Positions 1,504 through 64,000 of a DNA stretch of 64,000 bases are shown in pieces. Source of the stretch: a virus (taxonomy: Duplodnaviria; Heunggongvirae; Uroviricota; Caudoviricetes); the IMG/VR virus record IMGVR_UViG_2675903313_000009, one strand, 5' to 3'. Position 1 is the stretch's first letter. Each line of letters begins with the position of its first letter. The notes below the pieces were generated by a model that saw only the letters and a program-made list of their open reading frames with translations, ran no database searches and was not told where the DNA came from. Position numbers and translations under genes: made by a program.

Positions 1504-1524
1504 TTAAGCAACCATTCTTCACAA

Positions 1525-1549
1525 TGCCCAGCAATACGCTGGGCATTTT
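1525..1549 (+). terminator. Rho-independent terminator after metG
   Basis: Stem tgcccagc/gctgggca with 5-nt loop followed by TTTTC. Confidence 0.85.
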
Positions 1550-1586
1550 CATATAGACACAACCCCTTCTGACTTTAACAAACCCT

Positions 1587-1601
1587 AAAACAATTTGTTT
1601 T
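1587..1601 (+). promoter_or_regulatory. Early operator motif copy (AAAACAAnTTGTTT palindrome)
   Basis: aaaacaatttgtttt; one of about 10 near-identical palindromes in 5' leaders. Confidence 0.5.
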
Positions 1602-1636
1602 CTACCTTTTGTTAATTGAGATAATAAGCCACATAA

Positions 1637-1652
1637 GAAAACAAATTGTTTC
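1637..1652 (+). promoter_or_regulatory. Early operator motif copy
   Basis: gaaaacaaattgtttc, 12 nt upstream of ATG 1665. Confidence 0.5.
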
Positions 1653-1664
1653 GGAGTGGTTGAA

Positions 1665-1964
1665 ATGTTGAACATTACCCAAGCCTACCAGGTGGCATTG
1701 ATCAGTTCATCTCATACATCAGAGGAAGATGCTCGCCGATTCATGATCGCAAGCAATGAGCTGGATTGGGTTTCACAAATTGATGGCGGTTGTATTGTCC
1801 ACGCCGGGTTACAGGATGATGTCTGGAAAGACGACTTGCGTCGATATGGTATATCCGAAGGCGCGATTGCTAACATTCAGAAAGTACTTGATGTAGGCTT
1901 TGACTCTGTACATTTTGATTGTGGTGCACCGGTCGTTGAAGGGCTAGAGTGCTGGCAATGGTAA
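1665..1964 (+). CDS. Hypothetical early protein, acidic
   Basis: ORF with GGAG RBS; preceded by operator motif. Confidence 0.5.
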   Translation: MLNITQAYQVALISSSHTSEEDARRFMIASNELDWVSQIDGGCIVHAGLQDDVWKDDLRRYGISEGAIANIQKVLDVGFDSVHFDCGAPVVEGLECWQW

Positions 1965-2000
1965 TCCGGCAATCGCTTCATACTAGACAACGGAGAATTT

Positions 2001-2186
2001 ATGCTTAAAGAAGACTCATATCTACTAAAGGCGCTTGAAATGCGTGGCGTTGAACCTACAGTGAAAAACGCTCACGATATCTACCTTCAGTTTTCACCGG
2101 AGCTGAAACGGTTCATAAATCAATACGGGGTTAATGACTCAAGTGTTAAAGCAATGATAGATGATGAATTAGACCATCTCATCTAA
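2001..2186 (+). CDS. Hypothetical small protein
   Basis: 61-aa ORF with GGAG RBS. Confidence 0.4.
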   Translation: MLKEDSYLLKALEMRGVEPTVKNAHDIYLQFSPELKRFINQYGVNDSSVKAMIDDELDHLI

Positions 2187-2338
2187 TCGTTTCCTATGAT
2201 AATGGTTTTCACTTTGAGATTGTTATTTTTCATAGCTAAAGCTGATGTTTGTGGAAGGTGGATTGATAAACGGATGCGTATTTAGGTTATACAAGTGAGA
2301 AAATTGATAATATATAAACGCGATTTTTATGTGATGGA

Positions 2339-2908
2339 ATGGATGTGATGGAAACCCAGAACCAACAAACAAAACCTCTGAATAACATTTATGCGTGGAT
2401 TCTAGCGTTCATGCCTTTCTTCTTTGGAGTATCGCCGGAAGAGTATACCAATTACGCTATTATAATTGGGGGTGTAACTACCATCGGTTTGTTAGTAGCT
2501 GACAGAATGGCTCTATCGGAGTCTGGCTGTGAACCACCTTCAATTCTATGGGGGGTATTCCTCCTGCCTGTCTATCTCTGGAAGCGCGCGACTATTACAA
2601 AAGGCAGCAGAGTGCCATTTATCATAATCGTTGCGTCGCTGGCTTGGATTATCTTCATCGGCATCCCACACAAGGACGAGGTTGCTCTTGAAGAAGCAGC
2701 CTGCCCTCTCGTGACAACTATTCTGAAAGAGAATAACGGTTCGACTGCACCAAAATGTATGAAGGTGACAATAGAGGACAAGGTGACGGATAAGTTCTAT
2801 AGAGCAACGGCTACACTAGACAATGGTAATGACATTAACATTACTCTGGAACTTACCGGCGACAGGAACTTCTACGTCCGTGTTCCAAATGTTTATCTGA
2901 ACAACTAA
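2339..2908 (+). CDS. Predicted membrane protein, unknown function
   Basis: Several hydrophobic segments in N-terminal half; start codon uncertain. Confidence 0.5.
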   Translation: MDVMETQNQQTKPLNNIYAWILAFMPFFFGVSPEEYTNYAIIIGGVTTIGLLVADRMALSESGCEPPSILWGVFLLPVYLWKRATITKGSRVPFIIIVASLAWIIFIGIPHKDEVALEEAACPLVTTILKENNGSTAPKCMKVTIEDKVTDKFYRATATLDNGNDINITLELTGDRNFYVRVPNVYLNN

Positions 2909-2999
2909 CGGTTGTAACTTATTGATAATGGCGGTCACAATTTGATTCTTTTCTATAAGAATCCGTTGATCGCCACTACTCCCCTACCATACCCGCAAT

Positions 3000-3780
3000 C
3001 ACATCCTTAAATATCAATAAGTTATAGTTGTTTATACAATCAAGAAAACAACTGAATAACAGATCAACGAAACATCAACGCTTTCACCCGATTTGGTCTA
3101 AAAAATTGACGTTTTCACACATCACTTCTTATACCCGTAACTCTACGCAGCAGACAGCGCCACAGCGTCCAATTTTCACCACAGACGACCCAACACACTA
3201 CCAATAAAAACACACGCTCAAAATCGCTCCCGTTGCGTTACACAACCATATAAACAACTTATTTTCAGGCATAACAAAACAACTAAATAACACAAATGCC
3301 ATTCCCAAAAACAACCAACCTCTTTATGGCAGGCTACCGAAAAGACCCACCTCTTCTCCCCAGGCTACCGGACAACCAACCTAACTTTCACAGGCAATCC
3401 GAAAACATTCATACGCGCGATACCCACGACACGCCATTACCCAAACAGCGAAGAAACACCAGAATCACTGAAACCCCAACGAAGCCTGTAACCGCAAGGT
3501 TTCTCTCAATCCCAAAAGACACGAAACATAACAATCACGGGAAACGCCATTACCCAATACACGAATAACTACAAAAGCCTTTCACACACTCCAGACAAAC
3601 AACTCAAACACAATAACGAAAGGAATCGCCCACCTGCCATTACTCCATACACGGAGAAGAACAATCACCAAAACGACGAGAACACCCCATAGAAGAACCA
3701 CCGCAAAACGAACGAAACCACAGACACCGACAGAGAAAACAACACACCCAATTCACCAACAGAAATAGTCGCCGTATAGA
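3000..3780 (+). other. CA-rich, G- and T-poor non-coding tract (candidate long non-coding transcript)
   Basis: About 780 bp with strong A+C excess on + strand; only a low-complexity ORF without RBS; internal degenerate repeats (caaccaacct..ggctaccg). Confidence 0.4.
3106..3134 (+). promoter_or_regulatory. Candidate sigma70-type promoter reading into the CA-rich tract
   Basis: TTGACG, 17-nt spacer, TTATAC. Confidence 0.35.
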
Positions 3781-3892
3781 ACGTTCTGGAAGGAGTGAGC
3801 ATTAACGCCTATAGAGAGGTTGAGACAGATAAAACACGAAGAAAACACAACATGTATAGCGAACAAGACAGGTATGTATAAGTGGGGAGGGA

Positions 3893-3916
3893 AGGAGGGG
3901 TGTCGCCTCCTTTTTC
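3893..3916 (+). terminator. Rho-independent terminator at end of CA-rich tract
   Basis: Stem aggagg/cctcct with 7-nt loop then TTTTT. Confidence 0.7.
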
Positions 3917-3980
3917 GTATTTATTCAACTCCTGATTTTCATCCCCCGTAACACCCCTACGGTCAGCCTTCGGTCCATAC

Positions 3981-4120
3981 AGGGAAAAGGCTGCATCCCG
4001 CTACAGAAACGGCTGGGTTGCCTTCGGGGAACGGCTGGAGGTTTTCAGGGAAACGGTCGAGTTGCCTATGTGGATTTCGGGAAAAGGCTCGATGCCGGTT
4101 CAGGAACGGTGGCGTACCGG
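3981..4120. repeat. Direct-repeat array A: about 6 units of ~21 bp with core GGGAAACGGC
   Basis: Units agggaaaaggctg / agaaacggctgg / ggggaacggctgg / agggaaacggtcg / gggaaaaggctcg / aggaacggtgg at about two helical-turn spacing. Confidence 0.6.
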
Positions 4121-4445
4121 TATAGCGAGAGGGAGAGTTGCGGCTACCCACCTGTAATGTGCGGGAAGAAGAGAGGCGCTCACGTGCAGGCAGACTAACT
4201 TACCGTTGGACTCCCTTTGAATGCCCAACTACAGCGTAATTGTGCCAGAGAGTCAGCGGGTCACAATCGATTTCAGTAGGTTTTCGGGGAGAGGATTATT
4301 CTGCTCACCAGCCACTTTCGGCCACTAAATCAGAATAATGTAAAAAGTGTACTCGGTACTAAACCTGAAAACTCACTGCCAAAACCACATTCACCGGAAT
4401 AAAATCCTTTTTCGCCTGTGCGTTATTGCGATAATAACACCATCA

Positions 4446-4466
4446 AGAAAACATGTTGTTTAAGGA
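4446..4466 (+). promoter_or_regulatory. Early operator motif copy
   Basis: agaaaacatgttgtttaagga, immediately upstream of ATG 4474. Confidence 0.5.
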
Positions 4467-4473
4467 TTGCTTT

Positions 4474-4803
4474 ATGTTTGCAAATATCGACATCAACCAA
4501 ATCAAGAAAATGACTCAAAAAGAGTTTGACCAGTTTTATGAGTTAGAAGGTTGGTCTTCCACGCTGATCAATTCGCGCTGGGTGCTTGAGCTGATGACTC
4601 GTGATGATGCTCCTGCTTTGATTATTTGCGACCTGGGTGATGATGCTGACTTTATGGATATGAGCGAATTTTGTGTGGACACATACAACCGCAGCCAGAA
4701 GTACTACTTCACATGCGATAGCGAGAATGACGTTATTTCTAAGGTCTATCTTCACCTTGTCCAGCATTGGGACGTTCAGGAGTTTCTTGAAGTATTCGAG
4801 TAA
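4474..4803 (+). CDS. Hypothetical small acidic protein
   Basis: ORF with AAGGA RBS; Asp/Glu-rich. Confidence 0.5.
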   Translation: MFANIDINQIKKMTQKEFDQFYELEGWSSTLINSRWVLELMTRDDAPALIICDLGDDADFMDMSEFCVDTYNRSQKYYFTCDSENDVISKVYLHLVQHWDVQEFLEVFE

Positions 4804-4928
4804 CCCCAACCAAAGCCAGCATTGCTGGCTTAATTTCTCTATAGCCGCAGGGAAGAACCTGCATATCGCTCATGCACCTGATCAATATGCTTTGTAGCCG
4901 TTTTCTTACTGGTATTATTTACGCCATT

Positions 4929-4950
4929 GAGAAAACAAGTTGTTTACGGA
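4929..4950 (+). promoter_or_regulatory. Early operator motif copy
   Basis: gagaaaacaagttgtttacgga upstream of ATG 4957. Confidence 0.5.
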
Positions 4951-4956
4951 GTTGTA

Positions 4957-5268
4957 ATGAAAAAATCATTGGTTCTTGGTCTGGACAAAGACCAGAAGAA
5001 AAAAGAGAAGCCTGCGCTGGTTGCTCAATTAACTTTGCTGGACATCGTTGCCAATGGAACCTCTATTCGTCTGTTCCGTGAAACAGCGGTGTCTTTCGAT
5101 AAAAACACCTTTACTCGTTATGTAATGAATGTTCGTCGCCAGCGTGGAAAAGGCTGGGTGGCATTTCAAAGAATGTGGCCGGAACATCAGCTCGAACTGG
5201 CTTTGATGGAAGTTAACCGCGTGGCCCAGCAAGAAATTCAGAGAGCATCAGTGATGGCAATAGCCTGA
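4957..5268 (+). CDS. Hypothetical small basic protein
   Basis: ORF with RBS; followed by terminator. Confidence 0.5.
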   Translation: MKKSLVLGLDKDQKKKEKPALVAQLTLLDIVANGTSIRLFRETAVSFDKNTFTRYVMNVRRQRGKGWVAFQRMWPEHQLELALMEVNRVAQQEIQRASVMAIA

Positions 5269-5302
5269 TAATGTGCAAGTGGTAATTAGTCGACCGTACG
5301 AC

Positions 5303-5331
5303 AGCCCCGCCATCCTTACGGGGCTTTTTTT
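5303..5331 (+). terminator. Rho-independent terminator
   Basis: Stem agccccg/cggggct followed by T7. Confidence 0.85.
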
Positions 5332-5336
5332 GTATT

Positions 5337-5352
5337 GTAAGTACATACTTAC
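5337..5352. promoter_or_regulatory. Palindromic TAAGTA..TACTTA motif copy
   Basis: gtaagtacatacttac, perfect palindrome. Confidence 0.4.
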
Positions 5353-5395
5353 GATCATAGAATAGAAAAATAACCAATACACTACGGAGAGTGAA

Positions 5396-5791
5396 ATGAC
5401 CGTTAAACGCGAAAAACTGACAGTTGATGTTTACTATGCCTCTGAAACCGCCGAAGGTAAGAATGTGGCAAAAATCACCGTTGTTACGTACAACACCGAA
5501 ACTGGTGCCGAAGTCCAGGCCAGTACGATCGTGCGTAAAGGTGATGCCTCCGGCGGCGAGTACGCGACTCAATACCAGTCCATTCTCGATGCAACTGACC
5601 CGCTGCTGCTGAAAATCGAGAACTACTTCCGCCAGGTTGATGAAGAGGTGTTTGAAACCATGATGAATATGGTTAACACCGTATTCGCCTCCAGCCTGAA
5701 TACCAACACTACCTGGATTGGTCAGTACGGCCTGCGCATTACCTCTGGCATTCCTGCCGACACCTTAATCCCTGAAAGCGTATTCGCTTAA
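5396..5791 (+). CDS. Hypothetical protein
   Basis: 131-aa ORF with GGAGAG RBS. Confidence 0.5.
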   Translation: MTVKREKLTVDVYYASETAEGKNVAKITVVTYNTETGAEVQASTIVRKGDASGGEYATQYQSILDATDPLLLKIENYFRQVDEEVFETMMNMVNTVFASSLNTNTTWIGQYGLRITSGIPADTLIPESVFA

Positions 5792-5835
5792 TCCTCTTTA
5801 AATGGCGCGTAAACCGCGCCATTTTATTAAGCCCG

Positions 5836-5856
5836 ATAACAATTTGTTTTCTGCCT
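5836..5856 (+). promoter_or_regulatory. Early operator motif copy
   Basis: gataacaatttgttttctgcc. Confidence 0.5.
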
Positions 5857-5908
5857 TATCTGATTTGTGAAAATGATTTCACTGAAGCAAGTTAATAAGG
5901 AAACCATC

Positions 5909-6283
5909 ATGGGACTTGATATCTATATCGAGACACAGCCTAAAAACGATCTGAATAACGAGGCATCCAGAAAGCAGGTTGCTTACTTCCGTAAGTTCAA
6001 TGCGCTCGTTGGGTGGATGGAGCGCAACGTAGGTGAAGTCGAAAATTGTGAGCTTTTAGAATTAACGATGAATGACATTTGTTTTCTGAAGGCTCATTTG
6101 ATGCACATAAACGAAAGTAATTGCGAAGAGTACTTGCCTACCCGGGAAGGTTTTTTCTTCGGCAGTCAGGAGTACGATGAAGGTTACTGGCATGATGTGG
6201 GGCAGTTGAAAGAGCTTGTGGAAGATCTGATTAAGAACCACGACTTTCACAATAACAGACTGACCTTCTGCGCCTGGTGGTAA
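5909..6283 (+). CDS. Hypothetical acidic protein
   Basis: ORF with TAAGGAAA RBS; start chosen at ATG 5909 rather than upstream GTG. Confidence 0.5.
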   Translation: MGLDIYIETQPKNDLNNEASRKQVAYFRKFNALVGWMERNVGEVENCELLELTMNDICFLKAHLMHINESNCEEYLPTREGFFFGSQEYDEGYWHDVGQLKELVEDLIKNHDFHNNRLTFCAWW

Positions 6284-6285
6284 AT

Positions 6286-6429
6286 ATGGGCGATTTCAAG
6301 AAACGCCTGAAGGAAAGAGCCGAGATGGTCAGAAAGCAAAACGCCTCTTCTGTCATCAGATACGCAAGGCAGTTTAGTCGCAACAACAAATCAGTTGAGG
6401 AAAAGATCCTTAGCGTAATCGGTCGATAA
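6286..6429 (+). CDS. Possible small basic protein (47 aa), translationally coupled
   Basis: ATG 3 nt after upstream stop; below ORF-track size cutoff. Confidence 0.3.
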   Translation: MGDFKKRLKERAEMVRKQNASSVIRYARQFSRNNKSVEEKILSVIGR

Positions 6430-9181: not shown

Positions 9182-9706
9182 TTAAAATGGAAGGATTCGT
9201 TCAACCCAATCGAAGAAAACAAGTATTTTTCTGCCGTCTTCTAACTTAAGAGTGACCTGGCAAGCATCAACGCCTCTTGACACCCCTTCAATTTCACGAC
9301 CGTCTGCCATGTAGACCCTTATAGATTGGTCGTTTTGATAAGCCTTGCGACATATCGCAAAAAAGTCACGGCGTGATGGCTGATTGTCAACATAGTCTGG
9401 ATGTATTGTTAGCCTACCTTTGAACTCGCGAGCAATGCCATCGATTACACCTGATTCAATTGTGCTAATGCGCTCAAGTGGGAGTCTTATACGATTTTCT
9501 TTATCATATGGAAGCGGGCATAAATCTAGCTTATTGCGGGAAGGCATTGTCCCCTGAACGTACATGCAAAACACCTGACCGTCTTCAAGCGTGACTCTTA
9601 CAGGAATGTTGTTCTTCCGCCAGAACATAAGTATGTTTTCAGCATGTTCGTAGTCTCGCGGCCAGACTTCAGCCGGTATGCCGTAGGTGATGTCCAATGT
9701 TCTCAT
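9182..9706 (-). CDS. Hypothetical protein
   Basis: 174-aa ORF; overlaps upstream gene by 4 nt. Confidence 0.5.
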   Translation of the reverse strand: MRTLDITYGIPAEVWPRDYEHAENILMFWRKNNIPVRVTLEDGQVFCMYVQGTMPSRNKLDLCPLPYDKENRIRLPLERISTIESGVIDGIAREFKGRLTIHPDYVDNQPSRRDFFAICRKAYQNDQSIRVYMADGREIEGVSRGVDACQVTLKLEDGRKILVFFDWVERILPF

Positions 9707-10317
9707 TCTGATACTCTTAGAGGTGTTTTCAGCAACCCAAATTTAAATTCTTTGTTACCAACGACAAAGAAGGGAACCTCAACATAGATTTTTTTATCGA
9801 CGGATTTAGAGTTAGCTGTTTTCTGTATGTCACGAACGATACGTTTTGAGATATTTTCATCGATAAACAATACCTTTCCACTTGTATTCCCTTCAGCCTT
9901 GGCGTAAGTAACGATAGGCTCTTCATTGCCAACCCTAATGTTTACTTGGCAACCTGTTGTAGCCATTTCATCACAGTAAAGTGTGCCGTCTTGAACTTCT
10001 AAAACAATTCCAGATGGCTTCATGGCTTCGTCAGAGTTTACATTAACGTTTTCTGGTACAGCGGTCCCGTTAATTTGCAACCGTAATCTTTCTTTTCCTC
10101 CATTAAGTATTGTTTCTTCTGCGTTGTCTGAGAATCTGAACCAAACTGGCTGATTCAGACCTCGTGATTTGTATTCTACTACGTCTTCGGAGGTAAACAT
10201 GCTGTACGTTTTTTGCATGTCAGAGACGAAATCTGATAATGCGTTGGCGGAAAACGCCGGGAGGCATATACAAGCAAGGAGTAACGAAATTTTCATTTTC
10301 ATATCATGATAATCCAA
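9703..10317 (-). CDS. Predicted secreted protein (N-terminal signal peptide)
   Basis: N-terminus MKMKISLLLACICLPAFSANA; true start probably a few codons inside the ORF. Confidence 0.55.
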   Translation of the reverse strand: MDYHDMKMKISLLLACICLPAFSANALSDFVSDMQKTYSMFTSEDVVEYKSRGLNQPVWFRFSDNAEETILNGGKERLRLQINGTAVPENVNVNSDEAMKPSGIVLEVQDGTLYCDEMATTGCQVNIRVGNEEPIVTYAKAEGNTSGKVLFIDENISKRIVRDIQKTANSKSVDKKIYVEVPFFVVGNKEFKFGLLKTPLRVSE

Positions 10318-10806
10318 TTATTTAACATCACACTTTCTAAGTTTTTCTATTTGTTCTAATTTTTCATGATCATCATTTAGATTTCCTTCGACTATCTCCG
10401 TTTCAAGTTTGCTGATTAGCATGTTAAGTGCGTTGTAGTTATTGCATTTTACTTTGTAGGCGTAGTATGACCTTGTCCCTGGTTTTTGTACACCCATATC
10501 ATTAAAGTTAGAGCTTAAAGTATAACCTTCAAGTTCAACCCCTTTTATTGTTGGAAGAATTATATTTAATGGTTCTAATTTAAATGGGTAGATATAAATA
10601 TGTGATATGAAGTACTCTTCTGAAGAGATTTTCTTCATGTCTTTTGTGATTGAAGCTGAATATTTACGGTTCCGAGTGATATAAAATTTTGTGCATTTGT
10701 ACAACTCTAGGTTGAATAGATAATATTTATCTTTAAAAAGAACATCTTTTCCATGTGATATTTTATGTCGTAAAGAGTTAATTATTTTGTTTATGGAAAT
10801 ACTCAT
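10318..10806 (-). CDS. Hypothetical protein, Lys-rich
   Basis: 162-aa ORF abutting downstream gene; low GC. Confidence 0.5.
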   Translation of the reverse strand: MSISINKIINSLRHKISHGKDVLFKDKYYLFNLELYKCTKFYITRNRKYSASITKDMKKISSEEYFISHIYIYPFKLEPLNIILPTIKGVELEGYTLSSNFNDMGVQKPGTRSYYAYKVKCNNYNALNMLISKLETEIVEGNLNDDHEKLEQIEKLRKCDVK

Positions 10807-10951
10807 CTACAGTATCCGACCTTAGTTATCAATTGAAAAGCCTACAAATATCGTTCTGCCAATCAAGAAATTTTTTCAGCCGGAGGTGTGTGCTTCAAAA
10901 AATGTGATGAATATCACATGCAGGTGCTCTCATACACCTGCATGTAGACTA

Positions 10952-11551
10952 TTAATCATTCAATAATCTATATTTTCTTTTGATTAAATCTTCACCTTTT
11001 TTGGTGAACACAAAACCAAATTGCGATTTTTTGTTCAGCCTAAGTACTCTGTTATCCAACGCATCGGTTGATGGAATCAATGTTTGATCATCTATCCAAT
11101 TAAGTAGCGTAAGAAAGTTCAGCAGCCTCAACGTTGTTGTGCGAAGCTCTTTCGATATATTTTCAATGCTGGCAATTCGTCTTTCTTTTTTCTCAGGTGG
11201 TACAGATAATTGTTCTTGAGGTTTCGTGGATAGATAATCAATTTCGTTTGCTGCATCGAATGATATGTGTGGCGTAATTTTGCTAAAAAAGCCTTTCGCT
11301 GACTCACTTGATAATAAACCAGACCTATTCATATCGTTTGTTATTCTGTACAGGAGTGGACTGTGTTTCATTTCAGGATAACGTTGATAAAAGTTAAGCA
11401 ATTCAAAAGCAGCATTAGCGCCAACAAGAAAATCAGAAGGATCGCTGACTTTCCAGAAAGAATGATTTTTCTTAGCGCCAGTGGTGTCAACAAATGATAA
11501 TTCTTTTAACCAACTCATGATGTGCTCCTTTCTAACAAGTGAGCACATCAT
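10952..11551 (-). CDS. Hypothetical protein
   Basis: 199-aa ORF, low GC. Confidence 0.5.
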   Translation of the reverse strand: MMCSLVRKEHIMSWLKELSFVDTTGAKKNHSFWKVSDPSDFLVGANAAFELLNFYQRYPEMKHSPLLYRITNDMNRSGLLSSESAKGFFSKITPHISFDAANEIDYLSTKPQEQLSVPPEKKERRIASIENISKELRTTTLRLLNFLTLLNWIDDQTLIPSTDALDNRVLRLNKKSQFGFVFTKKGEDLIKRKYRLLND

Positions 11552-52730: not shown

Positions 52731-52736
52731 AAAATA

Positions 52737-55130: not shown

Positions 55131-55363
55131 ATTTTTTGTTCTGTTGATATAGGATGAACAGTTTAGACGCGGCAAGCGTCAAGTGTGCGAAAAAGGGTAC
55201 TTAAATTTAGTTAATATGTCAGCTTTGTTGATTTAGTTTATGGTCGGTAAAGTTACTAGGAAACTAATAACCATAAGAAATAGTACGCCATTTAATTATT
55301 GTGGCACTGCTCGTGTTTTGATTAACTAATACCTGCGATAAATATAAATAAAGGGAAGCCAAC

Positions 55364-56746: not shown

Positions 56747-57217
56747 GTGAAAGCTGATTTGTCAAAAATCCCTTCTATTTCAGGAAATAACGGTTATTCA
56801 CTTCGTTGTGAGGAAGTAAAGATAAACGGTGAGTCGGCATATTGCAGCTACTCCGTTTGCCAGCACACCATTCTTGCCTTCAAAGAAAACCGTCTTCCTC
56901 GAACTTCATTCCAGTCGTGCGCAACCGCTATCAAAGCAGGCAAATGCAAGGCGTTAAAAATGATGGTTGAAGAGATTCGTAAAGGAGAATCTCTGTATTT
57001 CGAAGATATGACCGCGCTCATTAAGGAGGTTGAAGAACGGAATAAACAAGCCAGAACTTTAAAACGAAAACGTGACAGTGTAACGATTAATAGCATGGTT
57101 AAGAAGAGCACCACATCACAAACAGCGATCACTGACGTGTATGCGGCGTTGCTTGAAGAAACAACAAAAGAAACACATGAGCAAATCGATCAACATATGG
57201 AGGTAAAACAACAATGA
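56747..57217 (+). CDS. Hypothetical protein
   Basis: 156-aa ORF (GTG start in track). Confidence 0.4.
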   Translation: MKADLSKIPSISGNNGYSLRCEEVKINGESAYCSYSVCQHTILAFKENRLPRTSFQSCATAIKAGKCKALKMMVEEIRKGESLYFEDMTALIKEVEERNKQARTLKRKRDSVTINSMVKKSTTSQTAITDVYAALLEETTKETHEQIDQHMEVKQQ

Positions 57218-58536
57218 AAAAGTTGATCGCACTTAAGCATAAGCTGGACGAAATGAAAGCTATGGGAACCAATGCAAAAAAAGAGGCATTGGCCAACATG
57301 GATGACTTCGAGCAAAGCATGGTTTCATTGATGCTCAACCCTTTCATCCGTTTTGGGGTAAAGAAATACAAAGTGGCAGAGCCGCTTAGTGAGTCCATCC
57401 CAAGTGACGAAAAAGCCATTGATGTACTGAATAAGCTGGCCTCTCGCGAGCTAACGGGGAACGCAGCAATAGCTGCTGTTGAGTCTATCGTGGCGTCAAT
57501 GTGCGCCGATGGGCAGGACGTGTTCCGTCGTTTCCTCTTAAAAGACCCGAAAGCGGGTGTTGGGATTAGCCTATGCAACAAGGTTTTTGAAAATCCCATT
57601 CCGAAATTCGAGGTGCAGCTGGCGTCACCGTATAAAGAAAAAGGCGACAAATACCCCTTCAAGCCAAATCCTAAAGCAAAATGGCCGATGATTGGCAGCC
57701 TTAAGCTCGATGGTTTGCGAGTAATTTGCGAGGTTATTGTTGACGAAGAAGAGGTTAACTTCCTTTCTCGTACTGGTAATCCAATCACGTCTCTCGATCA
57801 CCTAAAGCCAGCCATGCTCGAATTAGGCAAACTTTCAGGCCACAAACACATCTTCTTCGATGGTGAAGGCACAGCCGGTTCATTTAACCAGTCCGTATCT
57901 GCATTGCGCAAAAAGAACGTGCAGGCAATTGGCGCTATTTATCATATTTTCGACTTCTTCCTACCGGAATGGCGAGCACAGGCTAAATCCAAAGAGTATG
58001 CAAAGACAGGTATGAAGCTGAAAGAGCGCCTGGCTATGCTGGTGGCGTTGTTCAAAAACGATCGCAGTGAAGGCTACACACAAGACATTCACCTGCATCC
58101 GTTCTATATCATCCATAGCCACGAAGACTTCATCGAACGCTTCATGAAACGCCTGGACGATAACGAAGAAGGGGAGATGGGCAAAGATCCGAACTCTGTT
58201 TACGAGTTTAAACGTACCCGCAGCTGGTGGAAGTTAAAAGACGAAGATTCAGAAGATGGTGAAATTATCGACTTTGAGCCGGGCGATCCGGACTCTGGTT
58301 TTGCCAACACGCTTGGAAAAATTGTTATTCGCCTTGAAAACGGTGTGATTGTTCGTGCGAGCGGCATTAAGCATAAATATCTGGACGAGATCTGGAACAA
58401 CAAAGAGAAGTACCGTGGTCGTATTGTCGAGGTTCATTGTCACGAGAAAACGCCGGATGGCAGCTTACGCCACCCACGACTGAAATGGCCGCGTTGCTTA
58501 CGCGATACAGAAGATCGAATCGGAGATAAAGAATGA
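57214..58536 (+). CDS. ATP-dependent DNA ligase
   Basis: Adenylation motif I KLDGLR (SLKLDGLRV); about 150-aa N-terminal extension. Confidence 0.85.
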   Translation: MKKLIALKHKLDEMKAMGTNAKKEALANMDDFEQSMVSLMLNPFIRFGVKKYKVAEPLSESIPSDEKAIDVLNKLASRELTGNAAIAAVESIVASMCADGQDVFRRFLLKDPKAGVGISLCNKVFENPIPKFEVQLASPYKEKGDKYPFKPNPKAKWPMIGSLKLDGLRVICEVIVDEEEVNFLSRTGNPITSLDHLKPAMLELGKLSGHKHIFFDGEGTAGSFNQSVSALRKKNVQAIGAIYHIFDFFLPEWRAQAKSKEYAKTGMKLKERLAMLVALFKNDRSEGYTQDIHLHPFYIIHSHEDFIERFMKRLDDNEEGEMGKDPNSVYEFKRTRSWWKLKDEDSEDGEIIDFEPGDPDSGFANTLGKIVIRLENGVIVRASGIKHKYLDEIWNNKEKYRGRIVEVHCHEKTPDGSLRHPRLKWPRCLRDTEDRIGDKE

Positions 58537-58712
58537 TGCTCGGTTGGATGATTGCATTTTTAGCAGTTGGTTTTTTCATAGGTATTGTGGTGATGTCCAG
58601 TTGCATCAATGACTACATTAAAAGCGGTGTTATAGAAAGACGCGGTCGTATTTATCGCATTGTAGAAATAACCAACACCGTGAAGGAGATTAAGGATGAT
58701 CGTATTAAGTAA
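58536..58712 (+). CDS. Small single-pass membrane protein (paralog 1)
   Basis: 58-aa ORF found by eye; TM helix then RIYRIVEIT; start overlaps ligase stop (ATGA). Confidence 0.45.
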   Translation: MLGWMIAFLAVGFFIGIVVMSSCINDYIKSGVIERRGRIYRIVEITNTVKEIKDDRIK

Positions 58713-58911
58713 ACGGGAGAAGGAAACGCTTCATGAAATCAGTAAGTGGCCGGAGTTCCCTGAGTACTGGAAGCCTAAAACGCGAGCTAAGTTAGAGCGT
58801 TTAGGGTTGGTTGCAAACGTTTCTGAAACGTGGTGTTCGGCCAACTACCAGTTAACTGATAAAGGGAAAGTATTGCTACAGCAATTAGTAGAATCAGGAG
58901 TGTTAAAATGA
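58696..58911 (+). CDS. Hypothetical small protein
   Basis: 71-aa ORF overlapping neighbours. Confidence 0.4.
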   Translation: MIVLSKREKETLHEISKWPEFPEYWKPKTRAKLERLGLVANVSETWCSANYQLTDKGKVLLQQLVESGVLK

Positions 58912-59060
58912 TTCCATACATCTCATTAGCTTTTATGGGTGGCTTCCTTATCGGCTTCGGCATCTGTCGTGATTTAATTAAGCAGGAACTTAAAACCAAA
59001 ACACTGTGCATCGGAAAGCGTGTGTATCGGGTAGTTCATGAAACAAAGGTGAAAAAATGA
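58908..59060 (+). CDS. Small single-pass membrane protein (paralog 2)
   Basis: 50-aa ORF found by eye; TM helix then RVYRVVHET; ATGA overlaps at both ends. Confidence 0.45.
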   Translation: MIPYISLAFMGGFLIGFGICRDLIKQELKTKTLCIGKRVYRVVHETKVKK

Positions 59061-59347
59061 TCAATTTGACTTCTTGGAACTGGTGGTTGGCCACCTATTT
59101 CTTAGCGGCCGGAGTCGCATTCGCCTTTTACGTAGGTCAGTTAGTCGTAAAACTGTTGCTGATTAAATTTGCTAGTCATAAACGTATCGATGATGGTCTG
59201 TGGCGTCTTGGCACCCTGGTGGAAATTCGCTACGGGCAACTTAAGGAGAACGAAACCATTACTATCCAAGCGAAACGATTCACTGCCACCATTACAAGAA
59301 CACCTAGTCGTAGAGTGGCCTTGATCAAAAAAGTCACAACCGAATAA
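59057..59347 (+). CDS. Small membrane protein (paralog 3)
   Basis: N-terminal TM helix; basic C-terminus. Confidence 0.5.
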   Translation: MINLTSWNWWLATYFLAAGVAFAFYVGQLVVKLLLIKFASHKRIDDGLWRLGTLVEIRYGQLKENETITIQAKRFTATITRTPSRRVALIKKVTTE

Positions 59348-59356
59348 AAACATATT

Positions 59357-59378
59357 GATAAGTATTTACTTACTTATC
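59357..59378. promoter_or_regulatory. Palindromic GATAAGTA..TACTTATC motif copy (full 8-bp arms)
   Basis: gataagtatttacttacttatc. Confidence 0.45.
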
Positions 59379-59553
59379 TTTTGTGTATAAGATGACTTTG
59401 TTTTCGTTGAGACGCGACTGTTTGAACTTAAATACAAGTGCAAACGAAGAAGTCTATCTGGCAGTAGCCTAATAAGCCAAACACCAGCGAGGTCAGTTTC
59501 CAGCCTCGTTACCGAAATGGGACACACTGAGCGAGTGTGATTGCAGAACGCAG

Positions 59554-59576
59554 GAGGGAACATTCATGTTCCCTCC
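59554..59576 (+). other. Perfect 10-bp-stem hairpin
   Basis: ggagggaaca/tgttccctcc with 4-nt loop. Confidence 0.5.
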
Positions 59577-59582
59577 GATGAA

Positions 59583-59661
59583 GTAACAGAATGGGCGGTT
59601 GGTATATTTTCAACTCCATATGACTCCCGGATTCTTAGCCACTGACCGCCCATCCTGTTAC
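59583..59661 (+). other. Long-range stem-loop (17-bp stem around ~45 nt), candidate structured RNA
   Basis: gtaacagaatgggcggt pairs with accgcccatcctgttac. Confidence 0.4.
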
Positions 59662-59736
59662 GTCATTTTGTTCAATTATGTCGTTTATACTGGGTTAAAA
59701 AGCGGCGACGTAGCCCGGCTGGTATGGTTAGCCAGC

Positions 59737-59859
59737 ACACAACGTTGAGGCCATTACATTTTTATCAATTCTAAGGTTCTATTCACAGAGATACCGGCGA
59801 ACGTTGATATGTAACATGTTGGGCAAACATTCAATCGGAGTAGTGGCCTCAACGTTGTG
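59737..59859 (+). other. Long stem-loop H1 (ACACAAC..GTTGTG termini)
   Basis: 16-bp stem acaacgttgaggcca/tggcctcaacgttgt around ~90 nt. Confidence 0.45.
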
Positions 59860-60125
59860 AAGACGGGATTGTTGTGTAGGTTTAACCACTGTTGCCATTG
59901 GTGCCTGTTTTCACAACAAATGATTCCATACATCACATAGTATAAATTACAAAGTAGGTGCTGTCCTCAGAAACATCATCTACTTAAAGATTTTGCCTTC
60001 TACTATTGAGCGAAGTCGAAAGCGTCTGGCACTAACGAAAAGTGCAAGTAGCGGTGCGTTTCCTGGCAGAAACTAAACCGTCGCGATTGGCACTGTTGAG
60101 TAATAAATACTGGCAGTGCTGAATT

Positions 60126-60200
60126 GATGGTGTAGCTCAGCGGTAGAGCAGTTGGCTGTTAACCAACTGGTCGGTGGTTCGAATCCACCCACCATCGCCA
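60126..60200 (+). tRNA. tRNA-Asn (anticodon GUU)
   Basis: Cloverleaf folds by hand; anticodon loop CUGUUAA; CCA encoded; not the E. coli Asn tRNA sequence. Confidence 0.85.
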
Positions 60201-60205
60201 ATTTA

Positions 60206-60292
60206 GGGGAGTTAGTCCGTAGAGGTAGCGGTGTAGACTGTAAATCTACTGTCATGGCGACTCGGGTGGTTCGACTCCATCACTCCCCACCA
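60206..60292 (+). tRNA. tRNA-Tyr (anticodon GUA), long variable arm
   Basis: Anticodon arm gtaga-CUGUAAA-tctac; acceptor ggggagt/actcccc; CCA encoded. Confidence 0.75.
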
Positions 60293-60296
60293 AATT

Positions 60297-60372
60297 GCCG
60301 GTTTAGCTCAGTTGGTAGAGCAGTCGCTTTGTAAGCGAATGGCCAGCGGTTCAAGTCCGTTAACCGGCACCA
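60297..60372 (+). tRNA. tRNA-Thr (anticodon UGU; assignment tentative)
   Basis: Acceptor gccggtt/aaccggc; anticodon loop UUUGUAA with one mismatch in stem. Confidence 0.65.
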
Positions 60373-60462
60373 ACACAACAGGTAAGAGCATTGGGCGAAT
60401 CGGCGATACTGACCCACAAGGCCGTAAATCGATAGAGTCAGACCAGTGCTCTTACCGTTGTG
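60373..60462 (+). other. Long stem-loop H2 directly after tRNA-Thr
   Basis: acacaacaggtaagagcattgg pairs with ccagtgctcttaccgttgtg. Confidence 0.45.
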
Positions 60463-60562
60463 ATGAATGCACAGGCTGATGTGCCGCAACTACAGTAGTG
60501 CGCGCTTTGCGGGGCTTGCTACAACCCTGTGTCGGAGTTCAGTACCGACCATCACAATAGCT

Positions 60563-60649
60563 GGAGAGTAGGGAGCATGGTGCTCAAGCGGTCTTGAAAA
60601 CCGTTCCATTGTGCAAACGATGATGGTTCGATTCCATTACTCTCCGCCA
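60563..60649 (+). tRNA. tRNA-Ser (anticodon UGA), long variable arm
   Basis: Acceptor ggagagt/actctcc; anticodon loop CUUGAAA; CCA encoded. Confidence 0.8.
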
Positions 60650-60650
60650 G

Positions 60651-60729
60651 ACACAGCGTTGAGCGGTTTGGCCTTTTAATCAACTCGATTAAGACTCCGC
60701 TAACATAAACCAGACCGCTCAACGCTGTG
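60651..60729 (+). other. Long stem-loop H3 directly after tRNA-Ser
   Basis: acacagcgttgagcggtttgg pairs with ccagaccgctcaacgctgtg. Confidence 0.45.
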
Positions 60730-60803
60730 ATAGATAATTACGGCAGACGTTCTTAACCATAGCTTGCTAACATCTTAGCAACACTTTTTTCAGCGCAAAA
60801 TTC

Positions 60804-60826
60804 AAAGGGGCTTCGGCCCCTTTTTT
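60804..60826. terminator. Bidirectional rho-independent terminator
   Basis: aaaggggc ttcg gcccc tttttt, A/T runs on both sides. Confidence 0.9.
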
Positions 60827-60841
60827 GTTGAACAGTGCAAT

Positions 60842-62104
60842 TTACTTTACATAGTCGCCCAGTTTTAATATTTCGCGCTTATATTCTTTAACCATGCTAC
60901 TGGATTCAGTATAAATTCGATTTAAAAGATTATCGCTATCTTTATTCTCATTTATCTTAATGAGTGATAATTTAAATTCATAGTCATCAAATGCCACAAT
61001 CAAATGGTGGCCTGGGATTATATCTTCGTCACTCTTGAAGTATATATCTTCAAGTATGTAATCTAGTTGATTAGATTTTCTTTTCTCGATGTAATCTTCA
61101 GCCATAGCTATTACATCATTCCTGTCATTTAACCTGTTTTTTTCGGAAGGCACATCTTCGTAATGTTGCACGATTGAACAACCAATAAGGCGTGGGATGT
61201 AAACGTCAAAATGAGTAACTCTATCATTCGCGGTTTTAAGTTGTTCCTCAAAGTAGTTTCTTACATGTAAAGGCAACTTCTCAAAGTAATCATTAATTAT
61301 AGGAGAACAAGGAGTTTTATAATTCATAAGAACCGACGGTACGAGCTGTGGGCGTCGAAACATCCAGTCCCTTTTAACGTCCGATGGAACATAATAACTT
61401 TTAATGATATTATCAAAATAATTTATCATTCGAGATTTGAATATTTTATTGAATCTAAGGTTTATGAATGTATCCAGATAAGGCATATTTGAATAAGCAT
61501 CATCAAAAAATATTTCATCATTGAAAAAATCATATTTATTCAATAAACAACACAGTTTTTCCGAATTAATATGTTCACAATAATCGATTTTTAATCCAAA
61601 GATAGCAATGATCAACTTCATCTGAGGTGGGATTTTAAAAATTAATTGTGATACATACGCTCTTTTTTCCTTGAGACATTCCCCATCAATATAAAATGAA
61701 CTATCCACATACTCAAATATATTAATAATATGCTTCACATACTGTATTACCTCATGCTGTTTTACCAATGGGTAATAGAGTCTATGTAACTCATCGCTGT
61801 TTAAATTAATTTTGTGTTTATCGATAATTTGTTTTGCAAGAAGACATAACGCATCATGTTGATTTAATAAGGAATCAAACCATTGTTTAAATGCACTCTT
61901 TCGCATTTCGAACAATGATTCAGTTGTTAATTGAAGGGCTGAAAAAGCTGCTTTTGCACTTTTTCTCGCTTCGTAGGCATTCCATGCTGTTGCTATAAAA
62001 GCAAATGCTGTAGCCAATGTTCCAACAGTTTGACCATTTAAAACAACCCAATCCCAAAAAATAACGGTGAGCAGTAGTATAATAATGAAAATTAAAAAAG
62101 GCAT
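60842..62104 (-). CDS. AT-rich membrane-anchored protein of unknown function
   Basis: 420-aa minus-strand ORF; two N-terminal hydrophobic helices; GC far below neighbours; own terminator. Confidence 0.6.
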   Translation of the reverse strand: MPFLIFIIILLLTVIFWDWVVLNGQTVGTLATAFAFIATAWNAYEARKSAKAAFSALQLTTESLFEMRKSAFKQWFDSLLNQHDALCLLAKQIIDKHKINLNSDELHRLYYPLVKQHEVIQYVKHIINIFEYVDSSFYIDGECLKEKRAYVSQLIFKIPPQMKLIIAIFGLKIDYCEHINSEKLCCLLNKYDFFNDEIFFDDAYSNMPYLDTFINLRFNKIFKSRMINYFDNIIKSYYVPSDVKRDWMFRRPQLVPSVLMNYKTPCSPIINDYFEKLPLHVRNYFEEQLKTANDRVTHFDVYIPRLIGCSIVQHYEDVPSEKNRLNDRNDVIAMAEDYIEKRKSNQLDYILEDIYFKSDEDIIPGHHLIVAFDDYEFKLSLIKINENKDSDNLLNRIYTESSSMVKEYKREILKLGDYVK

Positions 62105-62278
62105 GTATGTATTTCACTCTACTAACTATAAATTATTAGGCTAATGTTAACCAAACAATGCCTTAATTAATAGATTGATCGAGGCTTTAATAGCTTTATA
62201 ATGCAGACTGCAAAGATAAGTATGCACATACCTATCTTCTTTGTAAGTAAAGTTGCATATCAATTCTATGAGGTAACA

Positions 62279-62524
62279 ATGACGATCACTATCTACGGAC
62301 GAGATAACTGCTCATACTGCAAACGTGCGGTCGAGCTGGCGAAGCAACTAAAGGGACATGGCTACGGTGATTATGAGTACATCGACATCACCACTGCCGG
62401 TATCAACAAGGAAAAACTAAGTGAAATTGTTGGTAAACCGGTAGAGACTATCCCCCAGGTGCTGATCGATGGCCAGCCGATTGGCGGATACACAGAACTG
62501 GCTGCATACGTCAGCACCCTCTGA
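62279..62524 (+). CDS. Glutaredoxin (GrxA/NrdH-like)
   Basis: CSYC active site in YGRDNCSYCKRA; GKPVETIPQ and GGYTE motifs resemble E. coli glutaredoxin 1 from memory. Confidence 0.8.
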   Translation: MTITIYGRDNCSYCKRAVELAKQLKGHGYGDYEYIDITTAGINKEKLSEIVGKPVETIPQVLIDGQPIGGYTELAAYVSTL

Positions 62525-62529
62525 TTTTA

Positions 62530-62552
62530 ACGGCTCACAGGAGCCGTTTTTA
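62530..62552 (+). terminator. Rho-independent terminator after glutaredoxin
   Basis: Stem acggctc/gagccgt then TTTTT. Confidence 0.85.
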
Positions 62553-62603
62553 TTCCCACCAAACTCACTCCCATTTCCCTTAAAATTCAAAAAACAACGT
62601 CAA

Positions 62604-62630
62604 AATGATTCCATACCTACTATGTATGGA
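62604..62630. promoter_or_regulatory. Inverted repeat upstream of integrase
   Basis: attccata..tatggaat. Confidence 0.3.
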
Positions 62631-62734
62631 ATCATTACTGAAAATGAGTTACTTTTACTCTTGATCCTATAAGAATCTATGCCTAATATACTGTTTACTT
62701 ATACAGTGAATCGGCGTAACTCGGTGATTGTCAT

Positions 62735-63838
62735 ATGAAAAATAGCTTTGACAGAGCACGCGCTGCGGAGAACACCTCAAAAGAGGCGATTGAGTATCTC
62801 GAAAGAGCATCTCAAATGCAGGCCGTTATGATCTCGCAGGTCAGCAATGACATGAGATTCTCGGACGCATTCATGTTATTCACTCGCTTATCTCTGCTGA
62901 TAACAAGACGTCGGCCAGAGATCGCTGTTCATTGTATTTTGATACATGTTTTGCCGCACATTGCCGATGTAAAAGTAAGTGACATTAATAGGTTCATGGT
63001 GAACCAACTGGTCAACCCACTAATACTGGATGGCAAAATTGTTATGGGCCGCCGCGTTTTCTCTCTGATGAAGCAGTTCCTTAGCTGGTGCGCCTTCCAG
63101 GGGATGATAGACGTGTCACCGTTAAACGATATGTCACTAAACAAAGTTGCCGGTGGCGCAAAGCCCACACCTCGCGAGCGGAAGCTGACCGACGCAGAGG
63201 TATGGGTGTTCTGGAATATATGGGACTACTTCAATGTGTGCGCTGGTACAAAATGGGCGGCCAGGCTGTGTCTTGTATCCGCAAGACGACCTGACGAAGT
63301 ACTGCGGGCTAAAAAAAGTGAGTTCAATCTTAAGCGTGGGGTTTGGAATCAAGGCAAGAGGAACAAATCTGCCCGTGAGCATTCGCTGCCTTTAAGCACA
63401 TTAATGCGCACATGTATTGAAGAGTTGTTCGAATACGGTAAAGGCAGCCAGTGGCTCGTGCCTTCGAATAAAAAAATCGGGAAAGACCTTCCTATGTCTA
63501 AAGTGGCAATAGCCCAGGCATTACGTCGTATCCTGGAACGACCAGAACTGATGGAGCTTGAGCCATTTACACCCCGAGACTTGCGCCGTACTGCGCGTAG
63601 TTACTTCCCAGCATTAGGCATAAGCCAGGAGGTATCACGCAAAATCATGAACCACAGTCTTGAGGGGATAGATCGAGTCTACGACCGGCACGATTATATG
63701 GACGAGATGCGAGACGCCTTAGAAAGTTTCTCGACGTACATCGCATCAATCGTAGAGCAACCGGATTTAGACGAAATTGACCACAAATTCAAGGGAGATC
63801 GTCTATCAACAGAGCTTATTCGTGTAAATTTTTCATAG
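62735..63838 (+). CDS. int: Tyrosine-type site-specific recombinase / integrase
   Basis: C-terminal catalytic signature (TPRDLRRT, MNHSLEGI, RVYDRHDY); N-terminus atypical. Confidence 0.8.
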   Translation: MKNSFDRARAAENTSKEAIEYLERASQMQAVMISQVSNDMRFSDAFMLFTRLSLLITRRRPEIAVHCILIHVLPHIADVKVSDINRFMVNQLVNPLILDGKIVMGRRVFSLMKQFLSWCAFQGMIDVSPLNDMSLNKVAGGAKPTPRERKLTDAEVWVFWNIWDYFNVCAGTKWAARLCLVSARRPDEVLRAKKSEFNLKRGVWNQGKRNKSAREHSLPLSTLMRTCIEELFEYGKGSQWLVPSNKKIGKDLPMSKVAIAQALRRILERPELMELEPFTPRDLRRTARSYFPALGISQEVSRKIMNHSLEGIDRVYDRHDYMDEMRDALESFSTYIASIVEQPDLDEIDHKFKGDRLSTELIRVNFS

Positions 63839-64000
63839 AGACTTTATGGCCTCAACAACCTTTTGTGATGCGCCTTTCTCTTTACCGAATCGCTCGTTAT
63901 ATGCAGCAAGAACCTGTTTTTCGTCCTCGTTAAGAGGAGCGGTGCCTTCTTTGTATAAAAATGCTGCGAGTTCAGGTTGGCGTTCTTCCAGCACCATCAT
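63832..64000 (-). CDS. Hypothetical protein, C-terminal fragment (start beyond window)
   Basis: Minus-strand open frame ending ..VVEAIKSL; overlaps integrase stop. Confidence 0.35.

Follow-up and report, generated by a model that had tools for sequence, protein, structure and literature searches.

A probable SSU5-supergroup phage-plasmid of Escherichia coli with a candidate Cre/loxP-like recombination module under predicted LexA control

Phage-plasmids of the SSU5 supergroup form a defined set (PMC7969092; PMC11652158). One SSU5-like phage-plasmid, Cyrano (identical to pLF82), is present at 5.5 copies per cell, forms virions that were shown by quantitative PCR and electron microscopy, and is induced 39-fold by ciprofloxacin (PMC9928086). 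According to reviews, phage-plasmids typically lack integrases (PMC12977533), and the tyrosine recombinase Cre of phage P1 has been described as a multimer resolvase (PMC7969092). Here, we analysed a 64,000-nucleotide stretch of viral DNA (IMG/VR record IMGVR_UViG_2675903313_000009), referred to as the window, which begins within a metG gene and carries near its right end a gene for a tyrosine recombinase annotated as an integrase (int). Our comparisons indicate that the window is very probably part of a ~110-kb SSU5-supergroup phage-plasmid of Escherichia coli, of the lineage that contains Cyrano/pLF82 and the plasmid pTW10722_119. Such an element is a temperate siphovirus with a low-copy circular plasmid as its prophage form. 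This large phage-plasmid group nonetheless keeps an integrase gene, together with a conserved, putatively lox-like site and a predicted SOS box.

Identity of the element and of its two ends

The origin of the window was assessed by comparison with 5,426 complete E. coli genomes, in which circular E. coli plasmids of 100-120 kb were the top matches. In a direct comparison, positions 1-64000 were collinear with pTW10722_119 (NZ_CP035843.1; 119.8 kb) at 95-99.9% nucleotide identity. The collinearity is broken by four variable patches and by copies of the insertion sequence IS100 in the plasmid, which split its J and primase genes; the window has intact copies of these two genes. A megablast search against phage records returned phage CMS-2020a with 93% coverage and 95.6% identity, and the Escherichia phages CMS-2020a, PhiR41_1 and Cyrano were 94-98% identical to the window. 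Salmonella phage SSU5 (NC_018843) showed ~81% nucleotide identity over the capsid, tail, lysis, par and rep modules. The window thus shares the gene repertoire of SSU5/pHCM2-type elements, with siphovirus structural genes and conserved genes of replication and recombination, that marks members of the supergroup. With regard to plasmid functions, a ParA is encoded in the window and a RepB-family initiator in the collinear relative, outside the window; beyond the window edge, the relatives carry this RepB initiator and a DnaE-like polymerase. Among the complete E. coli genomes, the terminase-capsid block was found at 247 places in 237 genomes and int at 255 places in 252 genomes, in both cases always on a plasmid and never on a chromosome, and mostly on plasmids of 100-120 kb. 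About 4-5% of complete E. coli genomes carry such an element. Because of these phage and plasmid matches and the published work on Cyrano and the SSU5 supergroup, the element belongs to a group that is common and already known. The original prediction had called the gene mixture more like a phage-plasmid, which agrees with the collinearity with SSU5-supergroup elements and with the plasmid-only occurrence in complete E. coli genomes. All parts that it listed were found, namely the metG 3′ end, ParA, DnaB-like helicase, primase, ligase, four tRNAs and the tyrosine recombinase.

Over most of the window, Cyrano (OV696614) and pTW10722_119 have the same gene order at 95-99.9% nucleotide identity, and they share with it apbC-metG, ParA, the replisome genes, the tRNA cluster, int and the repressor gene described below. 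In comparison with both, the window has patches of its own, which comprise a FljA-like gene, PD-T7-5/PDC-S31 and a different middle part of the tail fibre. Compared to Cyrano, it additionally carries a tRNA-Tyr and a Sel1 protein. SSU5 differs in that it lacks int, the adjacent helix-turn-helix (HTH) repressor gene and the palindrome upstream of int, and its cobT follows directly after tRNA-Asn. SSU5 was also not among the metG matches listed, while the lineage of the window carries metG. As a side observation, pTW10722_119 contains four IS100 copies, three of which split J, the primase gene and dnaE, so that it is probably a defective phage; in two stretches of this plasmid, IS100 spans 12227-14028 and 31849-33650 (stretch L010) and 1431-3232 and 27523-29324 (stretch L106).

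At the left edge, positions 1-1503 (plus strand) hold the 3′ part of metG, 1,503 nt or 501 codons with the Pfam domains tRNA-synt_1g, Anticodon_3 and tRNA_bind, and the start of the gene lies left of the window. A hairpin with a 9-bp stem, ATGCCCAGC-AATAC-GCTGGGCAT, is followed by TTTTC (1524-1550, plus strand). It is a plausible metG terminator by sequence reading, and a terminator scan made no call at 1524-1550. The original prediction had treated metG as the chromosomal flank, with the element starting at 1504, and had suggested comparing the sequence downstream of metG. This comparison did not bear it out. Homology to the K-12 chromosome comprises mrp/apbC, metG and the sequence between them and does not extend past the two stop codons, and the hairpin 3′ of the window metG is unrelated to the K-12 metG terminator. 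A full-length metG (677 aa) lies inside both pTW10722_119 and Cyrano, flanked on one side by a divergent apbC/mrp and a LexA-boxed humD and on the other side by the genes found from window position 1656 onward. The apbC-metG cassette was found in 208 PLSDB plasmids, 191 of them from Escherichia and 203 of them non-mobilizable, and in all four sequenced E. coli phages of the lineage. Every genome matched retains its chromosomal metG besides the plasmid copy. The metG fragment of the window is 98.7% identical in nucleotide sequence to that of pTW10722_119, 96.5% to that of Cyrano and 94.1% to that of K-12. Since the circular plasmids matching the rest of the window also contain metG, the window metG is, by this comparison, a plasmid allele and internal cargo, not a chromosomal flank. 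The end of K-12 homology at the gene ends, the different hairpin and the position of metG within the plasmids likewise argue that the element runs past the left window edge.

The ratio of nonsynonymous to synonymous substitution rates (dN/dS) of metG was 0.03 against K-12 and 0.016 against Cyrano, the latter at dS = 0.158; between the window and other phage-plasmid alleles, dS reached 0.16 with dN/dS of about 0.01-0.02. The apbC gene is 82.5% identical to K-12 at the nucleotide level and 95% at the amino acid level. Judged from these allele identities, dN/dS values and the divergence of apbC, the apbC-metG pair is an old capture of host genes under strong purifying selection on the plasmid. 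The unequal distances of metG and apbC from K-12, for which the cassette stretches 16144-19435 (L001) and 3060-6334 (L003) were compared, suggest a donor other than E. coli and a subsequent gene conversion of metG, or else unequal rates. The lineage has thus long kept a second, functional-looking methionyl-tRNA synthetase together with ApbC. In the searchable literature, we found no discussion of metG or methionyl-tRNA synthetase in connection with SSU5, pHCM2 or phage-like plasmids.

At the other end of the window, int (62735-63838, plus strand) encodes a protein of 367 aa that was assigned by Pfam PF00589, its catalytic residues and fold matches of an AlphaFold2 (AF2) model. It is followed by the 3′ end of a convergent, overlapping gene for a 128-aa HTH regulator (63833-64000, minus strand; cut by the window edge), a putative prophage repressor by synteny with pTW10722_119 and with Cyrano CYRAN_45. 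The order int, convergent overlapping ~128-aa HTH gene, 70-aa gene, cobT, AAA_5 ATPase gene and dnaE is constant in elements of E. coli, Citrobacter, Nissabacter, Klebsiella, Xenorhabdus and Providencia. In a species-representative set, relatives of int with 85-86% identity lie on ~108-kb contigs of Yersinia pestis and Kluyvera as well as on a 58-kb Buttiauxella contig and a 12-kb Kluyvera sichuanensis contig. Judged by synteny, int is a core gene of the lineage in at least nine genera. More distant homologues (47-48% identity) are solitary genes on a 723-kb Rahnella and a 508-kb Pantoea replicon, without phage neighbours and without an HTH gene beside them. Two oversized plasmids (198 and 161 kb) were checked for fusion at the palindrome, and the neighbourhood of int was normal in both. 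In the 161-kb plasmid, the dnaE-like gene is broken by IS26.

Three other explanations of the gene mixture are very unlikely in light of these data. A prophage inserted in the chromosome just downstream of metG, with its right att site beyond the window, would account for the usually chromosomal location of metG, for the hairpin after it with phage-like genes beginning shortly beyond, and for the presence of a tyrosine integrase. It is contradicted by the internal position of metG and apbC in Cyrano and over 200 circular plasmids, where their neighbours on either side are the same, by the plasmid type of the window allele, by the lack of chromosomal copies of int and the structural genes in the E. 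coli genomes and by the end of chromosomal homology at the gene ends. Integration into the chromosome just downstream of metG is therefore refuted for this lineage. The original prediction was right that an att repeat is missing: no direct repeat of ≥14 nt joins the left junction to the right end, and comparing the metG junction with the remainder of the window for att-like direct repeats gave three chance 14-mers and nothing more. This is expected for an element that, like its relatives, is most probably not integrated. An equally slim chance is left for an int that came from a separate neighbouring island, as the original prediction had considered, or from a recent recombinant insertion beside the phage. 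The stretch left of int (59350-62600) is indeed variable between relatives, but int, the overlapping HTH gene and cobT/cobS/dnaE form a block that is syntenic throughout the relatives examined, which range from E. coli to Providencia, 60445-64000 is 99.9% identical to pTW10722_119, and SSU5, in which cobT comes straight after the tRNAs, lacks the repressor as well as int. Slimmer still is the chance of an assembly chimera, for which nothing speaks beyond the unusual gene mix; it is refuted because sequenced phage genomes and scores of complete circular plasmids, each assembled independently, have the same gene order. For annotation, it follows that a host-like housekeeping gene beside phage genes does not prove an integration junction, nor does an 'integrase' call prove integration. 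What remains of interest is the uncharacterised module of recombinase, site and LexA box, and the long-kept metG-apbC cargo.

The recombinase and its upstream sequences

In an alignment of 20 recombinase homologues (43-87% identity), R184/R185, K211, R281-D-L-R284, H307 and Y316 were invariant. These residues correspond to the catalytic set R-K-H-R-H/W-Y of tyrosine recombinases, with Arg (R281) replacing the first His. The spacing between H307 and Y316 is 9, and the corresponding residues of lambda Int have the same spacing. Consistent with the atypical N-terminus noted in the original prediction, the first ~70 residues match no Pfam family. In the AF2 model (pLDDT 82.6), the N-terminal half, with residues 1-121, is predicted to be all-helical. 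An arm-binding domain was detected neither as an Arm-DNA-bind match in Pfam nor as a beta-sheet arm-binding fold in the model. Foldseek matched the model with a probability of 1.00 to lambda Int (residues 75-356), the Int of Tn1549, Xer, IntI and Cre, with Cre being a weaker match (E about 1e-2), and the matches cover the two-domain fold of core-binding and catalytic domains. Searched against solved structures, the single sequence gave no match, and a profile gave weak matches to a phage-integrase core-binding domain (E=0.006) and to XerH (0.02). Outside the group, the phage proteins closest to the recombinase are lambdoid integrases with 25-34% identity over residues 70-354. With the lambda-type integrases, its best structural match, the recombinase shares the core-binding and catalytic domains, but its N-terminus is helical and lacks the arm-binding fold, and no integrated copies were found in the complete E. 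coli genomes. Judged by the model, it would be a tyrosine recombinase of the simple kind, with no arm-binding domain.

Upstream of int, 99 nt before its start, lies a perfect palindrome with 13-bp arms and a 7-bp spacer, AATGATTCCATAC-CTACTAT-GTATGGAATCATT (62604-62636), which is a candidate crossover or recombinase-binding site. Its inverted repeats and asymmetric spacer resemble the organisation of Cre/loxP-like sites (spacers of 6-8 bp), and the spacers are AT-rich and variable. The lambda overlap region also has 7 bp. When E. coli, Y. pestis, Kluyvera and Buttiauxella sequences were aligned, both arms proved invariant and the spacer varied; conservation continues to the right of the palindrome, and the sequences to its left are unrelated. 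The palindrome was present in 80 IMG/VR contigs, and seven spacer variants occurred among 77 loci, which comprise IMG/VR contigs, other fetched loci and the window, oriented by the SOS-like box. In all 12 lineages sampled, down to int homologues of 44% identity, the gene is closely preceded by a perfect palindrome whose spacer is 7 bp long. Across these lineages the consensus of the arms goes from ATGATTCCATAC to GTGACTCCAGAC, with every change in one arm matched by its counterpart in the other. In a covariation count, 99.2% of the cells were paired and 4 of the 13 positions had changed on both sides, which was equalled in 0 of 500 shuffles; this count overstates independence, because the changes probably trace to few events. 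When the arms were paired in slid registers, 25-38% was complementary. The solitary int homologues of Rahnella and Pantoea have the same palindrome alongside. Given its conservation in 12 lineages and beside solitary megaplasmid homologues, the palindrome goes with the recombinase, and the clade is plasmid-borne as far as these comparisons reach.

Single copies of the arm occur elsewhere near int. In the window, the arm copy ATGATTCCATACATC is found at 58908-58922 (plus strand), where it overlaps the stop/start junction of two small open reading frames at a position conserved in Cyrano, Citrobacter, Kluyvera and SSU5, and again at 59920-59934 (plus strand) within a structured non-coding region. 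The isolated copies share an ATC extension, and one of them directly follows a TTCACA hexamer. In the relatives, one minus-strand copy lies inside the dnaE-like gene (48985-48996 of L010). In pTW10722_119, five copies of an 11-mer of the arm lie within 10 kb around int and none elsewhere in the 119.8 kb; the two left copies are on the plus strand and the right one is on the minus strand, so that they converge on the palindrome. Citrobacter and Klebsiella have a further arm copy inside int. SSU5 has three arm copies, one of them mutated, in corresponding places despite having no int (at 5323, 6346 and 10885 of L091, which is SSU5 36000-62000). With the palindromes of Xenorhabdus, Providencia, Rahnella and Pantoea, no isolated arms were found in the flanking sequence available, 5-10 kb to the left and to the right.

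Between the palindrome and int, a putative int promoter, TTGATC-17 nt-TAATAT (62661-62708, plus strand), was identified by sequence reading and by conservation in the alignment. Its -10 element is overlapped by a LexA-box-like sequence, TACTGTTTACTTATACAGTG (62689-62708), which agrees with the consensus at 16 of 20 positions. The CTG-N10-CAG pattern of this box lies at a fixed distance from the palindrome in the 77 loci, while its interior varies, and the box at int is the only one in the window. Two such boxes were found in pTW10722_119, the second of which precedes humD. The LexA box is absent from Nissabacter, Xenorhabdus and Providencia and from the solitary int copies. Since the box lies over promoter elements, as in LexA-type promoters, int is predicted to be under LexA control. 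The 128-aa HTH protein gave a weak HTH_19 match and has no peptidase domain, and it appears unlikely that this putative repressor is cleaved in the manner of CI.

Proposed function and alternative explanations

The closest described counterpart is Cre/loxP of P1. In both systems, a plasmid prophage encodes a tyrosine recombinase that lacks an arm-binding domain (in our case by prediction), and two 13-bp inverted repeats with a short asymmetric spacer lie near the gene. The F ResD/rfsF system can be named beside Cre/loxP as a similar plasmid resolvase of the tyrosine family, with multimer resolution and circularisation as the role expected here. There are also differences: the recombinase has no detectable sequence similarity to Cre and matches it weakly in fold, the loxP spacer has 8 bp instead of 7 bp, and the LexA box in the promoter and the isolated arm copies are further points of difference. 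We give a slight preference to the explanation that the product of this core gene acts at the upstream 13-7-13 inverted-repeat site in the way P1 Cre acts at loxP. The recombinase would resolve plasmid multimers and/or circularise incoming genomes after infection, and would leave the chromosome untouched, with no insertion of the phage. Because of the conserved LexA box in its promoter, int expression should rise in the SOS response. A module of int, site and SOS box would offer a handle on the upkeep of plasmid monomers and on induction.

Some observations weigh against this Cre-like function. The first His of the H-x-x-R motif is an Arg. Extra single arms are not expected for a plain lox-like site, and they persist in SSU5, which has no int. 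An SOS-controlled promoter suits induction better than steady plasmid maintenance, and a few contigs of 0.2-0.9 Mb bear close int homologues. The palindrome could also be an operator, for example for autoregulation. Finally, the circular, episomal state of the window is deduced from its relatives, not from the window itself.

The alternative that comes closest, although we consider it distinctly less probable than Cre-like recombination, is that the palindrome and the single arms are operators and not crossover sites, with the recombinase acting as a repressor only or with another protein binding there. It would explain why the five 11-mers of pTW10722_119 occur only around int and converge on the palindrome, why the isolated copies share the ATC extension and one follows TTCACA, why SSU5 retains three arms without int, and why the palindrome lies upstream of the int promoter. 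We do not rate it lower because the isolated copies fit operators better than a plain crossover site. On the other hand, a 13-7-13 arrangement with an AT-rich, asymmetric and freely varying 7-bp spacer, in which the half-site centres are 20 bp apart, has the geometry of a tyrosine-recombinase core site. In addition, the site accompanies the recombinase gene even without an adjacent HTH repressor gene, and Xenorhabdus, Providencia, Rahnella and Pantoea have the palindrome without isolated arms nearby. Operator and crossover roles are moreover not exclusive; res sites often overlap resolvase promoters. A true integrase that switches the element between plasmid and chromosome, with the palindrome as attP, is improbable. 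Its nearest outside phage homologues are lambdoid, lambda Int is its best fold match, attP is usually located beside int, and SOS control suits excision or induction. Close homologues on a few very long contigs, and the reported integration of Y. pestis pMT1/pFra into the chromosome, would also fit. However, none of the copies in the 5,426 E. coli genomes is chromosomal, the arm-binding domain is missing, an excisionase was not noticed next to int, and the same site accompanies solitary homologues on megaplasmids without phage genes. The site itself is a perfect palindrome, whereas a lambda-type site consists of an imperfect core with distinct arm sites. Among the P0006 contigs, including three blocks with a longest contig of 0.2-1 Mb, the 4 places shown keep the genes upstream of int, and 12 further P0006 places are listed with mostly the same neighbour proteins.

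An extension of the Cre-like function, which we put forward tentatively and consider rather unlikely as a whole, is that int and the 13-7-13 site form an undescribed Cre/loxP-like system shared with enterobacterial megaplasmids, and that, in the E. coli/Klebsiella/Yersinia branch, the prophage senses the SOS response through the LexA-controlled int promoter (Pint). Transcription from Pint would pass through int into the overlapping gene for the small, non-cleavable HTH repressor. Because the Pint transcript would run into this convergent gene, DNA damage would have a dual effect, switching on the recombinase and silencing the repressor through an antisense transcript. Such antisense read-through from int is speculation. 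The inward-pointing single arms would then be extra binding sites of the same protein.

Other genes of the window

The left part of the window contains an AT-rich variable patch (9182-11609, minus strand; GC content 36-40%) that is absent from pTW10722_119. Besides three proteins that fall into no family, it encodes a FljA-like 'repressor of phase-1 flagellin' (9182-9706; PF03614, E=5e-81). A repressor of flagellar phase variation on a phage-plasmid could alter flagellin expression of the host. The patch is followed by a gene for a DEAD/DEAH (UvsW-like) helicase (11865-13424, minus strand), assigned by Pfam and by the annotation of relatives. The packaging genes are preceded by genes for two ParB_N/Srx-domain proteins and an ABC-type ATPase (13489-15517, plus strand; Pfam), which are conserved in pTW10722_119 and Cyrano.

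The siphovirus module is complete, judged by synteny with annotated relatives. According to the annotation of collinear relatives, 17510-22177 (plus strand) encodes the terminase large subunit, the portal, a DUF6651 protein and the major capsid protein. The tail module (27293-43150, plus strand) was assigned from open reading frames, collinearity and the annotation of Cyrano and pTW10722_119. It comprises a tape measure protein of 1,525 aa, M/L/K/I/J-like proteins and a tail fibre whose middle part (40065-41846) is variable. The lysis genes for holin, endolysin and Rz (44384-45678, plus strand) follow from synteny, the Cyrano annotation and collinearity.

The partition locus (47378-48405, plus strand; Pfam and PHROGs) consists of a gene for a ParA-type ATPase (47378-48046) and one for an adjoining partner protein of 119 aa. 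ParA matched PF09140, PF13614 and PF01656 (MipZ/CbiA/ParA) and the ParA-like phrog_164, as is characteristic of the Walker-type ParA of type I ParABS systems. The 119-aa protein downstream of parA matched only phrog_5111, a family of unknown function. Neither around parA nor ahead of the helicase gene were convincing centromere or iteron repeats detected, and a tandem-repeat search across the window gave nothing convincing either. Between the partition and replication genes, a variable slot (48411-50408, plus strand) holds the defence candidates PDC-S31/DUF2971 and PD-T7-5 (PADLOC, E=4e-38 and 2e-139). Because pTW10722_119 carries a P-loop NTPase in the same slot instead, it looks like a hotspot for the exchange of defence genes. 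The replication module (50597-53993, plus strand; Pfam and PHROGs) encodes a phrog_2500 protein, a DnaB-like helicase (51390-52730) and a primase with a Toprim domain (52740-53993). It is followed by a gene for a Sel1/TPR repeat protein of 396 aa (53985-55175, minus strand; Pfam Sel1, E=1e-54), which is found in many E. coli relatives and not in Cyrano, and by one for an ATP-dependent DNA ligase (57214-58536, plus strand; Pfam).

Upstream of the tRNA cluster lies the structured non-coding region (59540-59960, plus strand) with several inverted repeats of 20-22 nt. Its predicted RNA fold had a z-score of -6.3, and none of 100 shuffled sequences was as stable. Rfam scans of the window and of the non-coding sequence in 58500-62800 returned the four tRNAs and nothing else. 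The region could be an origin or an uncharacterised RNA. The tRNA cluster itself (60126-60649, plus strand; ARAGORN and Rfam) consists of tRNA-Asn(GTT), tRNA-Tyr(GTA), tRNA-Thr(TGT) and tRNA-Ser(TGA). Arms like those of the structured region (CACAGCGTTGAG...) return at 60652-60729, after tRNA-Ser.

Between the tRNAs and the palindrome, a protein of 420 aa is encoded at 60842-62104 (minus strand); it belongs to phrog_18168, of unknown function, and has no match in Pfam or PADLOC. A gene for a GrxA-type glutaredoxin (62201-62524, plus strand; Pfam) is followed by a terminator-like hairpin at 62529-62548 that was called in the terminator scan. In relatives, other cargo left of int includes a YafO toxin, PhoH, Ail/Lom and an Acb2/Tad1-like protein. 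Outside the window, the phage-plasmid also carries a dihydrofolate reductase gene (25705-26181 of L106), which is labelled by NCBI as trimethoprim-resistant DfrA51 and adjoins the genes for thymidylate synthase and nrdAB.

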